Of a DNA stretch of 64,000 nt, positions 3,801-8,519 are shown piece after piece. A program made the position numbers and the translations under genes. Positions within the stretch are counted from its first letter, which is position 1. Each line of letters opens with the position of its first letter. The DNA is from Verrucomicrobiia bacterium (GTDB lineage: Bacteria; Verrucomicrobiota; Verrucomicrobiia; Palsa-1439). The notes under the pieces are model-generated. The model ran no database searches and had not been told where the DNA came from. It was given only the letters and a program-made list of their open reading frames with translations. Location of the stretch: the NCBI GenBank assembly GCA_050010195.1, contig JBEKLM010000008.1:7843-71842 (forward strand), read 5' to 3'.

Positions 3801-6317
3801 ATGAATAGAACACGCTTCATGAAGAGCGCCGCAATCCGCAGGTGTTTGAGTGGCATGGCTTTCTGGGTAGTCGGCAGTATCATGGCGGTGGCTTCCGCCC
3901 AAACCACCCGAACAGTCCGTGTCGTTGAGTACAATATCCAGGCCGACACTACTTATACCATTCCGACGTGTGGCTTGATCGTTCCCTTCACTGGCACCGG
4001 CGGAAGTTTCACGACCAGCTGCGGCGGCAGTGCGACCACGACGAATGGCGGCGTGCTCGAAGGGATTGGCGAAGAGATTATAAACGGCGATCCGGCCCAG
4101 CCGATCGACATTCTGGCGTTGAATGAGACGACCAGTAACACGACCACCGTCCAACCGATCGTGAACGGGTTAAACGCATTCTACTTATACTACAATAGCA
4201 TATGCTATACGAATCATCCCGCCGGGTATGCGATGAGCACGTATCAGGCAACGGAAAGCGGCGGCAGCCCCAGCTCTGGGAACGGGCCCAACGCCCTGGT
4301 GTACAACACCAACACGCTCCAGCTTCTGGCCTCGGTCCCGGTGGATCCGCCGGGCGGCACCGGCAACCTGGGTTCCACCAGCGGCGAGTATCGCGAGGTG
4401 ATGCGGTACGAGTTTGCGCCGGCCGGTGTAACGCCCGGGACGAACAATGAGTTTTACGTCTACGTGAGCCACTACAAGGCGAGCTCGGGTAGCAGCGACG
4501 ACAAAGCTCGCTTCGGTGAGGCCAGCATCATCCGCAGTAACGAATACCTCAACTTACCCGCCAATGCCCGGGTGCTGTACGTGGGTGACTACAATCCCGA
4601 CGATAACAGCGGCGAAGCCGGCTACCAGACCATTTGCTCCAACGGCGTACCCGGCATTGCCAACTCTGCGACAGGGCAGGGCCAGGGAGTCGACCCCCTC
4701 AATATTCTGTGGACTCCGTACACAAGCGCGTCGCCCAACATTAATTGGAGTGTGAGTACGACCAATACAAATATCCTGTTTATGATGAGCGAGGAGTCCT
4801 ACGAGCTCCGGTACCGCGACGATCTCCAGGTTATGACGAGCAATGTGTACTATGACGTGGCCGGTGGTTTCCAGTATGTACCGGGAACCTACCACTCGTT
4901 CGGCAACAATGGCTCGTTCACCTGGGGAACCAGCGTGAACAGTGGTGGCAACACCGCCCTGAGCGATCTGGACACGAATCTGACGAAAGTTACCGGTCTT
5001 TCCGCCGCCGTGCTGTTGGAGGACCTTACCGGTGCCAGCGACCACCTGCCCACTGTGGCCGATTACACCATCCCCATCCCACTTTCCGTGACGGCGCCGG
5101 TAGCCAGTTTCACAAATAATCCCGCCAGCGGGCCGGTGCCATTGACCGTGCACTTTTACGACACCTCGACGGGCTCGCCCACGAGTTGGAGTTGGACGTT
5201 TGGTGATGGCAGCGGCACGTCAACGTCGCAGAACCCGAACTATACATACAACTATCCGGGTTCTTACGTGGTGACGCAGATTGTGGCCAACGCGAGCGGA
5301 TCCAGCACCAATCACAGCACGATCACGGCGTCCTGCCCGGCGATCACATTGTCACCAGCCGCCGGCGCCTTGACGGCCGGAACGGTGGGCACGGCGTACA
5401 GCCAGACGATCACGGCCAGCGGTGGGACTGGACCGTACACCTACGCCGTAACGGCGGGCTCGTTGACGGGCTCGGGTCTGAGTTTGTCATCGGCGGGCAC
5501 GCTCTCCGGTGCGTCCCCGGTGGCGGGCACGTACACGTTTACAGTCACGGCGACGGACACCAACAACTGCACGGGCAGCGCGGCCTACACATTGACCGTG
5601 GGTTGCCCGACGATCACATTGTCACCCAATGGAGCGAATCCGACGGCGTTGCCCGGCGGGACGGAGGGCACAGCGTACAACAGCCAGACGATCACGGCCA
5701 GCGGTGGGACTGGACCGTACACCTACGCCGTAACGGCGGGCTCGTTGGCGGGCTCGGGCCTGAGTTTGTCATCGGCGGGCGTTCTGTCCGGTCCGTCCCC
5801 GGTGGCGGGCACGTACACGTTTACAGTCACGGCGACGGACACCAACAACTGCACGAGCAGTCAAGCGTACAGCGTGACGGTGCAGACGCAATTCGGGTCG
5901 TGGGAGCAGTTCTACGACCTCAGCGGCACGTTGAGTGGTGGGAATGCCTCCTACACGGGCGACGGCATGAGCAACACCAACAAGTTCATGGCGGGCTTCA
6001 ATCCCACCAATGCGGCAGCGTACCTGCACGTCATCAGTATCGTGGAGTCGGTGGCGGGCAATACCAACGTCGTGGTGACGTACCTCGGCGCCAACGGGGA
6101 TAACACCTACGTGCCGGGGATTGCGTCACGGACCAACGTGCTGGATTACATGACCGGTGACGCTAACGGCAGCTACACGAATGGCGGTTGGCAGGACACC
6201 GGCCAGACCAATATTCTCAGTGGCGGGAACGGGTCCGGCATTGTCACCAACATGACGGACTCGAATGTGACGGCGAGTCCCAACTTGTATTACCGCGTGC
6301 GCGTGTTGTTGCCATAA
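3801..6317 (+). CDS. Secreted multidomain protein: endonuclease/exonuclease/phosphatase (EEP) domain, PKD domain, two putative-Ig (He_PIG) repeats and an uncharacterised ~125-aa C-terminal domain
   Basis: Signal peptide. EEP motifs DILALNE … SDHLPTVADY. PKD: PLTVHFYDTSTGSPTSWSWTFGDGSGTS. Two tandem repeats match the He_PIG consensus (…TAYSQTITASGGTGPYTYAVTAGSL…TYTFTVTATDTNNCT…). The C-terminal domain is shared with the next gene. Confidence 0.85.
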   Translation: MNRTRFMKSAAIRRCLSGMAFWVVGSIMAVASAQTTRTVRVVEYNIQADTTYTIPTCGLIVPFTGTGGSFTTSCGGSATTTNGGVLEGIGEEIINGDPAQPIDILALNETTSNTTTVQPIVNGLNAFYLYYNSICYTNHPAGYAMSTYQATESGGSPSSGNGPNALVYNTNTLQLLASVPVDPPGGTGNLGSTSGEYREVMRYEFAPAGVTPGTNNEFYVYVSHYKASSGSSDDKARFGEASIIRSNEYLNLPANARVLYVGDYNPDDNSGEAGYQTICSNGVPGIANSATGQGQGVDPLNILWTPYTSASPNINWSVSTTNTNILFMMSEESYELRYRDDLQVMTSNVYYDVAGGFQYVPGTYHSFGNNGSFTWGTSVNSGGNTALSDLDTNLTKVTGLSAAVLLEDLTGASDHLPTVADYTIPIPLSVTAPVASFTNNPASGPVPLTVHFYDTSTGSPTSWSWTFGDGSGTSTSQNPNYTYNYPGSYVVTQIVANASGSSTNHSTITASCPAITLSPAAGALTAGTVGTAYSQTITASGGTGPYTYAVTAGSLTGSGLSLSSAGTLSGASPVAGTYTFTVTATDTNNCTGSAAYTLTVGCPTITLSPNGANPTALPGGTEGTAYNSQTITASGGTGPYTYAVTAGSLAGSGLSLSSAGVLSGPSPVAGTYTFTVTATDTNNCTSSQAYSVTVQTQFGSWEQFYDLSGTLSGGNASYTGDGMSNTNKFMAGFNPTNAAAYLHVISIVESVAGNTNVVVTYLGANGDNTYVPGIASRTNVLDYMTGDANGSYTNGGWQDTGQTNILSGGNGSGIVTNMTDSNVTASPNLYYRVRVLLP

Positions 6318-6506
6318 CACGGTTTCAGGATAGGCAATATTGATGAGTCTCGTGCGACTCTGCCGCGTTGCGACCATCGGCGTGGCCGTGGAAAGGCCAG
6401 TTTCATTGCACTTTCACGACACAGGGATGTTTGCTGCCAGCTTGGTCGCTAGTGCTGTGCGTTTCGTAAATTCTACAAAGGTGACATTAATGTCTCGGAG
6501 ATTGCA

Positions 6507-8519
6507 ATGAAGAGAAAACTCACGTTTTTGATTGTAGGCGCATCCTTTTTGCTCGGTGCGCTGGCGGCGCAGGCCCAGCAAATCAAGGTGATGGAGTACG
6601 ATGCCTCGCAGGAGATCGGCGCCAACACCAATCCGACACCGCAATCGGCGGCGTTCACACGCGTCATCGCGTACCAGCAACCGGATATCGTCTGCTTCTC
6701 CGAGCTAAATGATGGCAGCTCCGTTTCGCTGGTCACCAGTGGTGTGGTCAACTGGGTGACGAACAATCTGGCTTCGATCTTCGGAACAAAGACCGGCGTC
6801 ACGTTTTGGGTCTACATCGCCAACGTGGGAGATGGATACAATCGCAACGGCGAGATCAGCCGTTATCCGATTGTCAGCGCCACGACGTATAGCGATGCCG
6901 GGGGCGGGTTTGCCAACCTGCGTGGCATGGATTCGATCCAGATCCAGTTGAGCGGAACGAACACGCTCCAGATTTTCCATGCACAACTGAAAGCGGGTGG
7001 CGGCACCCTCGACACGAACAGCAATTGCGAACGAAAGCAGGCGGAGGCCGCGACCGACGCGACCAACATGATGAACTGGGCGAGCACGAACCAGTACCCG
7101 TATATCTGGACCTGTGATTGCAATGAGGACCAGGACCCGCGCGACGCCGGTTACACCGCGCCCTACACCACGCCCGAGTGCCCGGTGTCGAGCACGTATC
7201 ATCCGATCACCACCCTCGAACAGGTGGGCGGGCTGGTTGATTACGCCCCCACCACGCTCGAAACCAATGCGGTCGGTTCATGGCGGACGTGGAGCACGGC
7301 GCAAACGGCTGGTCAGCCGTCCGACATGTTCGATCGCATTCTTGCCGCGACCAACCGGCTCAGCCCCGCGTCCGGGCTGGTGTTCAGCACGTTCGACTGG
7401 GCCGCGCACGGTCTGTACACCAACGCGAGCCCGCAGAATCTCGTTAACGACAGCCTGACGGCGGACGATCACTACGATGTCATGGTGACCTACTCGTTTC
7501 CGACCTCCGGGACGAATTCTGGCGTCAACCCGACCTTGCTCACGGCGAGCGGAAGTCCGGGCGGGCCGTTCACTCCCTCCAGTCAGATCTGCGTGCTGAC
7601 GAACTTCGACACGATCCCGTTGTTTTGGTACGCGACAAACCAAACCAGCTGGTTGAAGGTTTCTTCTCCGGCCGGAAACCTTGGCGCCGGTTGGGGCACA
7701 AACATCACCGCGTCCATTACGGCGGCGGCCAATTCGCTGACAGCGGGGACGTACACGGACACGATTACCTTCAGCAACACGGCTACGGGAGTTTCTCTCC
7801 CAGTGGGTGTGACGCTGACAGTCGGGACACCACCACCCGTGGCGAGTTTTACGGCGAGTCCGACCAACGGCGCGACGCCGTTGACCGTGAGCTTCACGGA
7901 CCACTCGTCCGGTTCGGTGACGGGCTGGGCGTGGGCGTTTGGGGACGGCAACACGTCGATCAGCGAGAACCCGTCGGACATCTACGTGACTCCGGGCACG
8001 TACACGGTGCAGGAGATCGTCAGCGGCCCGGGTGGGTCCAGTACGGACACGGTGGTGAATGTGATCAACGTGTACGACCCGTTCGCGTGGTGGCAACTCC
8101 AGTACTTCGGCAGCACCAACATTAGTGCGAGCACCGCGCCGGGCGGGGATTACACCGGTACCGGTATGAGCAACACCAACAGATTTCTGGCGGGCTTCAA
8201 TCCCACCAACGCGGCGGCGTACCTGCACGTCATCAATGTCGTGGAGTCGGTGGCGGGCAATACAAACGTCGTGGTGACGTATCTTGGGCCCAATGGGGAC
8301 AACACCTATGTGCCGGGGATTGCGTCACGGACGAACGTATTGGATTACATGACCGGCGACGCCAACGGCAACTACACGAATGGCGGCTGGCAGGACACGG
8401 GCCAGACCAATATTCTCAGCGGTGGGAATGGGTCGGGGATTGTCACCAACATGACGGATCCGGCGATCCCGGGCGCCCCGACGAACCGGTACTACCGCGT
8501 GCGCGTGGTGTTGCCGTAA
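6507..8519 (+). CDS. Secreted paralogous protein: EEP-like N-terminal region, PKD domain and the same uncharacterised C-terminal domain
   Basis: Signal peptide. DIVCFSELND (an EEP DIVCLQE-like motif). PKD: PLTVSFTDHSSGSVTGWAWAFGDGNTS. The C-terminal ~125 aa are about 90% identical to the 3801..6317 C-terminus. Confidence 0.8.
   Translation: MKRKLTFLIVGASFLLGALAAQAQQIKVMEYDASQEIGANTNPTPQSAAFTRVIAYQQPDIVCFSELNDGSSVSLVTSGVVNWVTNNLASIFGTKTGVTFWVYIANVGDGYNRNGEISRYPIVSATTYSDAGGGFANLRGMDSIQIQLSGTNTLQIFHAQLKAGGGTLDTNSNCERKQAEAATDATNMMNWASTNQYPYIWTCDCNEDQDPRDAGYTAPYTTPECPVSSTYHPITTLEQVGGLVDYAPTTLETNAVGSWRTWSTAQTAGQPSDMFDRILAATNRLSPASGLVFSTFDWAAHGLYTNASPQNLVNDSLTADDHYDVMVTYSFPTSGTNSGVNPTLLTASGSPGGPFTPSSQICVLTNFDTIPLFWYATNQTSWLKVSSPAGNLGAGWGTNITASITAAANSLTAGTYTDTITFSNTATGVSLPVGVTLTVGTPPPVASFTASPTNGATPLTVSFTDHSSGSVTGWAWAFGDGNTSISENPSDIYVTPGTYTVQEIVSGPGGSSTDTVVNVINVYDPFAWWQLQYFGSTNISASTAPGGDYTGTGMSNTNRFLAGFNPTNAAAYLHVINVVESVAGNTNVVVTYLGPNGDNTYVPGIASRTNVLDYMTGDANGNYTNGGWQDTGQTNILSGGNGSGIVTNMTDPAIPGAPTNRYYRVRVVLP

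Follow-up and report, generated by a model that had tools for sequence, protein, structure and literature searches.

Two adjacent genes of a Verrucomicrobiia bacterium (GTDB lineage Palsa-1439; assembly GCA_050010195.1, contig JBEKLM010000008.1, positions 7,843 to 71,842) end in nearly the same domain, and the question raised by this locus is what such a domain does for the proteins that carry it. The whole 64-kb stretch that was analyzed is referred to as the window, the two genes as A and B, and the shared part as the C-terminal domain (CTD). The CTD is a real, well-defined, and unannotated family. A C-terminal module common to secreted proteins is of a familiar kind, and no account of a domain such as this one was found in the literature searched. 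The explanation we favor, tentatively and from sequence comparison, is that the CTD is a passenger-independent sorting or surface-retention tag, like the CTD of the type IX secretion system (T9SS) or dockerin but a member of neither. The tag would probably be used by a clade of uncultured Verrucomicrobiia from peat and soil.

Sequence and fold of the shared domain

The CTDs of genes A and B were 91% identical at the DNA level over 377 nt (89% in an ungapped stretch of 300 nt) and 87–88% identical at the protein level (87% over 122 aa), which confirmed the near-identity claimed in the original prediction. No third copy was present within the window. The ratio of nonsynonymous to synonymous divergence (dN/dS) between the two CTDs was approximately 0.07. 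The last ~140 residues of both proteins had no match in Pfam (models to 2025) or NCBIfam 20.0, and none to a carbohydrate-binding module (CBM) family, even at E values up to 10, and phmmer against the PDB sequences returned only noise.

An AlphaFold (AF2) model of the last 143 residues of gene A, built with 121 sequences, had a mean local confidence (pLDDT) of 89 and a template modeling score (pTM) of 0.80. It comprised a short helix (WEQFY), a degenerate EF-hand-like loop (SYTGDGMSNTNKF), a second helix (NTNKFMA), and a six-strand beta-sandwich whose last strand (YYRVRVL) leads into the end of the protein, YYRVRVLLP-stop. The corresponding parts of gene B are WWQLQYF, the loop DYTGTGMSNTNRF, and RYYRVRVVLP-stop. 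Fold searches with the model gave only generic similarity to fibronectin type III (FN3) and immunoglobulin (Ig)-like domains. The invariant or near-invariant positions of the family included N30/N32, F38, the YLG.NGD motif, SRTN, T108/N109, a G.G.G turn, and the terminal YYR.R...P.

The loop before the second helix is a perfect EF-hand or thrombospondin type 3 (TSP3)-type DxDxDG.....E in some relatives, while the window genes have S-T-D...K (gene A) and D-T-T...R (gene B). Among 220 loops, 45 were DxDxD-like, with E/D at position 12 in 43 and K/R in two; the other 175 were degenerate, with K/R at position 12 in 110, Q in 56, E/D in seven, and other residues in two. The commonest form of the degenerate loops with Gln-12, D-L/Y/F-K (50 loops), has Lys at position 5. 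The loop residues covary strikingly in three states, a pattern suggesting that a lysine side chain may have taken the place of an ancestral Ca2+ site along two independent routes.

Searches with four divergent relatives gave matches below the thresholds to TSP3_bac (E = 0.0024) and EF-hand_1 (E = 0.003), the best TSP3/EF-hand Pfam score being 18.1 bits in one type-2 relative against a cut-off of 25 bits. The Amuc_1099 family model (NF042425) was matched by divergent relatives at 18–22 bits (E of 7e-5 to 1e-3; cut-off of 50 bits), where DPDGDG..NxxEF..G.NPTN aligned locally and weakly to model positions ~125–171. This similarity covered approximately 45 residues and was limited to relatives whose DxDxDG loop is intact (three of type 2 and one of type 1); the window genes had no match to the model. 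Membership of the CTD in TSP3_bac, EF-hand_1, or Amuc_1099 was rejected because the matches were below the thresholds and confined to these ~45 residues.

The domain had been described as uncharacterized and distinct from PEP-CTERM, LPXTG, and T9SS tails, and this description held. PEP-CTERM signals likewise direct many proteins to one system in the same kind of organism. However, neither A nor B matched the PEP-CTERM hidden Markov models (HMMs; PF07589/TIGR02595), and the CTD is a folded domain of ~140 aa ending in ...RVRVLLP, with no PEP motif, transmembrane helix, or basic tail. The LPXTG motif of sortase substrates was absent from both translations, which had no hydrophobic tail, and the maximum hydropathy over 18 residues in 274 CTDs was 1.58, indicating no transmembrane-like stretch. 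The richness in N-x-S/T sequons that had also been ascribed to the domain proved to be a compositional effect rather than a conserved feature. The family averaged 2.1 sequons per CTD, whereas composition predicts 2.5, so an enrichment in N-glycosylation sites was rejected; the five sequons in the CTD of gene A are the family maximum.

Distribution, carriers, and exchange of the domain

One genome per GTDB species was scanned with peptide patterns specific to type 1, the CTD subtype of the window genes, using the trimmed alignment A4 and confirmation by tblastn. The scan confirmed 112 CTD stretches, which were found only in 16 uncultured Verrucomicrobiia metagenome-assembled genomes (MAGs), with at least 16 copies in one MAG (a lower bound from the retrieved loci). 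The best 80 of the 112 stretches, as 77 loci, were analyzed. Judged by their isolate names, the MAGs came from peat, bog, palsa, or soil, and we take these names to denote the Microflora Danica, SPRUCE, and Stordalen sampling projects. Limisphaerales is the name that the sources give for relatives. The closest among the listed loci was that of MFD01223.bin.2.30 (L002), with a CTD identity of 97% and a passenger identity of 90% for gene A.

All 102 complete copies of the CTD, defined as matches reaching the end of the domain, ended 0–1 residue before the stop codon, and the final residue was Pro in 100 of them. Six partial matches appeared to lie in frameshifted or fused open reading frames (ORFs). 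A single ORF of 1857 aa (L021, 2871–8444) contained an A-like passenger, an internal CTD without its last ~15 residues, a B-like passenger, and a terminal CTD; it is probably a fusion of the A and B orthologs by frameshift, stop loss, or assembly error.

Two subtypes were distinguished. Type 1 has VTYLGANGD, a 10-residue insert, SRTNVL, and an end that is mostly RVRVLLP, and the shorter type 2 has VITWTTAGG-HTNxVQ and ends mostly in RVRLVP. Both were present in eight of the 16 MAGs and on the L001 metagenome contig.

Homolog searches of a collection of 5.8 billion proteins returned 129 and 784 CTD relatives, and the matches listed bore no name other than "hypothetical protein" or "PKD repeat protein". 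The listed matches were all ≤250 aa and largely fragments. A stand-alone family of small proteins was considered and rejected, as several short matches are 3' fragments of long genes (e.g., P0066, from the 3' end of a GH28-PATR-PKD gene of 1560 aa). Many representatives of 346–1622 aa matched the CTD part at their very C-terminus.

The carriers are diverse. A Pfam scan of 48 carriers identified PKD (30 carriers), GH28 (13), Ig/I-set arrays (eight), GH53 and pectinesterase (three each), PATR (two), and, in one carrier each, pectate lyase (Pectate_lyase_4), alginate lyases of two Pfam families, CBM6, malectin, and the pro-kumamolisin activation domain of sedolisin-type proteases. Endonuclease/exonuclease/phosphatase (EEP) proteins were also among the carriers. 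By a rough heuristic, 71 of the 78 complete carriers had a signal-peptide-like N-terminus. CTD genes often stood in tandem, as A and B do, with up to five consecutive genes in L040 and L053.

The high identity of the two CTDs had been called consistent with recent gene conversion. Conversion was visible in sister genomes, but it is not recent in the window. Between A and B, the synonymous divergence (dS) was ~0.5 in the CTD and 1.2 in the PKD domain, and it was saturated in the N-terminal halves. When A-type and B-type CTDs of several genomes were placed in a codon-based tree, those of A and B formed separate clades in the window and L002 (DNA identities of 98.6% between the A copies, 95.6% between the B copies, and 85% between A and B of the window); thus, any conversion between A and B here is older than the divergence from L002. 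The B CTDs of L004 and L020 each grouped with the A CTD of their own genome. The A and B CTDs of L004 were 93.9% identical, and gene B of L004 was only 80.7% identical to that of the window in the CTD but 94% in the passenger, a pattern that in these sequences reads as a clear signature of gene conversion.

Exchange was not confined to A and B. Orthologs in other MAGs were available for 45 carriers; in 22 of these, the CTD was nearer to that of a protein with an unrelated passenger in the same genome than to that of the ortholog. Two carriers (L053, 518–4009, and L040, 12897–16241) had passengers of 91% identity and CTDs of 34% identity, which in sequence terms indicates a replacement of the whole domain, type 1 versus type 2. 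The 22 carriers and this swap of subtypes argue that the CTD is an exchangeable cassette.

Possible roles of the domain

The terminal position, the conserved C-terminus, the multiple copies, the unrelated cargos, the purifying selection, and the cassette exchange together argue for a cargo-independent tag with a shared partner. T9SS CTDs, dockerins, and exosortase signals behave in this way. The carriers would be exported by Sec, as their signal-peptide-like N-termini suggest. Each would then present a short helical lead-in, formed around a loop of the TSP3/EF-hand type, and a beta-sandwich resembling FN3 that closes with a nearly invariant last strand and free carboxy-terminus (...RVRVLLP). 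One cellular partner would recognize this domain; it might be a factor for translocation across, or attachment to, the outer membrane, or else a polymer at the cell surface. Pectinases and other polysaccharide-degrading enzymes, phosphoesterases (A and B), a protease, and adhesin-like proteins with Ig repeats would thereby reach the cell surface or be retained there. We propose that the CTD is exchanged among genes by gene conversion or recombination because the tag acts independently of its cargo, and that exchange within the genome led to the near-identical copies on A and B. The original prediction had suggested a lineage-specific sorting or anchoring domain; the distribution fits this suggestion (terminal, multicopy, and in Verrucomicrobiia MAGs only), and the function is what we infer from it.

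A close parallel is the T9SS CTD (types A and B), also a beta-sandwich at the extreme C-terminus of multidomain enzymes and adhesins exported by Sec, cargo-independent, often behind Ig/PKD spacers, and borne by many carriers per genome (listed as dozens). The modeled sandwich, the terminal position in 102 of 102 copies, the signal-peptide-like N-termini, and up to 16 copies per MAG agree with this structural pattern. The window CTDs and the four divergent relatives had no match to the T9SS CTD HMMs (TIGR04183/TIGR04131 and Por_Secre_tail) at E up to 1–10, and no core component of the T9SS machinery (PorK/L/M/N, SprA, or PorU/PorV) was found among the ORFs scanned in the window. A related reading, which we consider unlikely, is that the CTD is the tag of an undescribed sorting or display pathway in Verrucomicrobia of the Limisphaerales type. 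The CTD would then be the counterpart of the T9SS CTD of Bacteroidota or of exosortase signals with machinery of its own, the interchangeable types 1 and 2 would specify alternative destinations or partners, and the Ca2+ site would be replaced by a lysine that sits at one of two alternative loop positions in most lineages.

Several observations weigh against a sorting or retention tag. A neighbor analysis of 78 CTD loci identified no partner or processing enzyme. Two kinds of proteins were seen near the CTD genes. Proteins with prepilin-type N-methylation and DUF1559 (SBP_bac_10) lay at 0.8–6 kb (e.g., L023, 4169–4960; L051, 9662–10477; L057, 3944–4828; and L047, 2705–4316), with a raw count of 14 genes in 12 loci and no background rate; their proximity could be meaningful or a mere reflection of high copy number. 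Membrane proteins of ~650–790 aa with tetratricopeptide repeats (TPR) and the N-terminal motif ...W(R/H)AGFIWDDDDY lay at 3–9 kb, with 14 genes in 10 loci and four more in a second cluster, likewise a raw count without a background rate. Examples are three consecutive genes in L029 (9850–16423, minus strand), L018 (8869–11253), L030, L047, L052, and L065. Their N-terminal half had no Pfam match and may resemble glycosyltransferases of the GT-C/TMTC type. Both families are highly multicopy in these phyla. The restriction to one lineage is limited by the patterns of the scan, as these were specific to type 1. Most carriers are carbohydrate-active enzymes (CAZymes), which would also fit a substrate- or glycan-binding role, and the conserved Thr-Asn pairs that start four strands could form a glycan-binding face. 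The cassette exchange could also be a neutral by-product of the tandem arrangement, as many converted pairs are adjacent.

The main rival to a sorting tag is a new CBM-like family, in which a Thr/Asn-rich face of the beta-sheet would tether the enzymes to a polysaccharide, either of the plant cell wall (such as pectin) or of the producer itself (exopolysaccharide or lipopolysaccharide). The CAZyme bias and the Thr/Asn-rich sandwich speak for it, and we regard it as doubtful for reasons of placement and cargo. CBMs occur anywhere in a protein and also in tandem, whereas the CTD was terminal and single-copy in all 102 complete cases, with a conserved free C-terminus. It is also carried by EEP phosphoesterases, a sedolisin-type protease, and Ig arrays, and one carrier already has a CBM6. 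Orthologous passengers with different CTD subtypes are hard to square with substrate matching. Unlike the FN3-like or X-modules and CBMs of bacterial glycoside hydrolases, the CTD matched no Pfam fn3 or CBM model.

Two further explanations appear improbable. A dockerin-like module would plug the enzymes into a cohesin-like scaffold to give a cell-bound multi-enzyme complex, and dockerin I and TSP3 (PF00404 and PF18884) do resemble the CTD in the DxDxDG...E loop followed by a helix, the C-terminal placement on CAZymes, and the homogenization of paralogs within a genome, as would be expected from species-specific cohesin–dockerin pairs; the weak TSP3_bac and EF-hand_1 matches point in the same direction. 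Dockerin type I has two tandem segments of ~22 residues, whereas the CTD alignment contained a single loop-helix with no match to Dockerin_1. Moreover, this loop was degenerate in most members, including both window genes, the domain is mostly a beta-sandwich, and no repeated cohesin-like scaffold was seen among the 78 loci. It is slightly less probable still that the CTD lacks any targeting role and serves to cap the structure, or to help fold or stabilize the PKD/Ig stalk in front of it, having spread through tandem genes by duplication and conversion. This reading would account for the PKD domain directly before the CTD in 30 of the 48 carriers, for the adjacency of many converted pairs, and for the lack of a partner, but not readily for the very strong conservation (the low dN/dS), the near-invariant free C-terminus, which also occurs on carriers without PKD, or the retention of the domain in more than 100 genes across 16 species. 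A passenger-independent tag remains our tentative preference.

Gene architecture, surrounding genes, and significance

The two ORFs of the original prediction were found at their predicted positions on the same strand, as genes for predicted Sec-exported proteins with an EEP or EEP-like domain and a PKD domain, and their features are listed in Table 1. Gene A encodes, in order, a signal peptide, an EEP domain, a PKD domain, two He_PIG repeats, and the CTD; gene B encodes a signal peptide, an EEP-like domain, a beta-rich region without assignment, a PKD domain, and the CTD. The predicted signal peptide of gene A has a basic n-region and a hydrophobic core followed by A-S-A.

Table 1. Features of genes A and B and other ORFs in the window (positions in the window).
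Feature	Position	Strand	Basis
Gene A, 838 aa, exported	3801–6317	+	ORF; Pfam domains
Gene A predicted Sec signal peptide, MNRTRFMKSAAIRRCLSGMAFWVVGSIMAVASA/QT (...AVASA/QT)	3801–3899	+	Translation; heuristic only
Gene A EEP fold domain	3900–5090	+	
Gene A PKD domain (aa 432–510)	5094–5330	+	Pfam PKD_4 (PF18911/PF00801), E = 6.7e-16, 58.6 bits, above cut-off
He_PIG repeat 1 (aa 514–607)	5340–5621	+	Pfam He_PIG and repeat analysis
He_PIG repeat 2 (aa 608–701)	5622–5903	+	Repeat analysis
Gene A CTD (type 1)	5901–6317	+	AF2 model, family alignments
Gene A CTD loop	5952–5990		
Gene B, 670 aa, exported	6507–8519	+	ORF; Pfam
Gene B predicted Sec signal peptide, MKRKLTFLIVGASFLLGALAAQA/QQ (...AAQA/QQ)	6507–6575	+	Translation; heuristic only
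Gene B EEP-like domain	6576–7496	+	Weak PF03372 match, motif order
Gene B PKD domain (aa 443–520)	7833–8066	+	Pfam PKD_4, E = 1.2e-12, 48.1 bits, above cut-off
Gene B CTD (type 1)	8088–8519	+	Alignment to gene A CTD
Gene B CTD loop	8151–8189		
PEP-CTERM protein, 226 aa	8718–9398	+	Pfam, E = 2.7e-5
ORF, 260 aa	9602–10384	+	Noise-level PorV match only, E = 0.048
ORF, 707 aa	10602–12725	-	By eye only
ORF, 143 aa	12635–13066	-	By eye only
AsmA/DUF748 family protein, 790 aa	50729–53101	+	E = 4e-193

The EEP motifs of gene A were complete and in order (YN, LNE, SH, GDYN, RDD, and SDH) and were invariant in its orthologs and 52 relatives. Pfam gave gene A itself no EEP (PF03372) match, and PF03372 was carried by its relatives at ~60% identity; by the modeled structure and these homologs, its N-terminal half is assigned to the EEP alpha/beta sandwich fold. 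Gene B matched PF03372 at E = 4e-4 (20.7 bits, under the cut-off of 24.5 bits), with the motifs YD, FSE, FH, CDCN, and DDH in order and Asp replacing Asn in the first-strand residue. Profile searches of the PDB sequences with both N-terminal halves gave nothing useful. Genes A and B had been called EEP-PKD paralogs. Outside the CTD, they have only the PKD domain in common (49% identity), and hhalign of their EEP-like halves gave a probability of 1.3% with no profile–profile signal. The term paralogs is thus firm for the PKD and CTD part only, as the N-terminal halves had no detectable homology. A promoter and terminator scan was uninformative (three promoter-like sites against 2.7 expected).

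He_PIG (PF05345) was detected above the Pfam cut-off in two stretches of gene A (E = 1.4e-17, 64.4 bits). The repeat unit is 282 nt, and the boundaries first proposed (5341–5590 and 5591–5880) were corrected to those in Table 1. The repeats had been described as near-identical, which was borne out for a core of ~200 nt (92% DNA identity between 5680–5882 and 5398–5600) but not for the divergent edges. Several 30-nt segments inside the core, and stretches of 60 nt of the two repeats, were 100% identical, and dS between the repeats was 0.32; the identical stretches suggest that the repeats may be under ongoing homogenization. Among the orthologs of gene A (L002, L003, L008, L020, and L025), two copies were present in L002 and L008 and one in L003, with none detected in others, so the number of He_PIG modules is evolutionarily labile.

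Directly downstream of gene B lies a gene for a PEP-CTERM protein (...VPEPATWGLVVAGAAALMVAAARSRRRK), and the organism therefore also uses the exosortase route. The next ORF (260 aa) has a hydrophobic N-terminal segment and belongs to no assigned family. On the opposite strand, the N-terminal part of the 707-aa ORF reads like a cytosine-5 DNA methyltransferase (GGPPCQPFS and ENV), and the 143-aa ORF overlapping it reads like a Vsr very-short-patch repair endonuclease. The AsmA/DUF748 protein, of an outer-membrane lipid-transport type, is consistent with a diderm envelope. The remaining genes among the scanned ORFs were housekeeping genes.

Verrucomicrobia rank among the main degraders of plant polymers in peat and soil, yet little is understood of how their enzymes are exported and positioned. 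The CTD occurs on more than 100 exported enzymes and adhesin-like proteins and offers a handle: with it, the secretome of these uncultured bacteria could be delimited from sequence data alone, matching machinery for sorting or anchoring could be sought by phyletic profiling, and a possible new route of surface display could be tested. Should the CTD instead turn out to bind glycans, it would establish a new CBM-like family with a link to the turnover of pectin in peatlands. In both cases, a family model in Pfam or NCBIfam is warranted.

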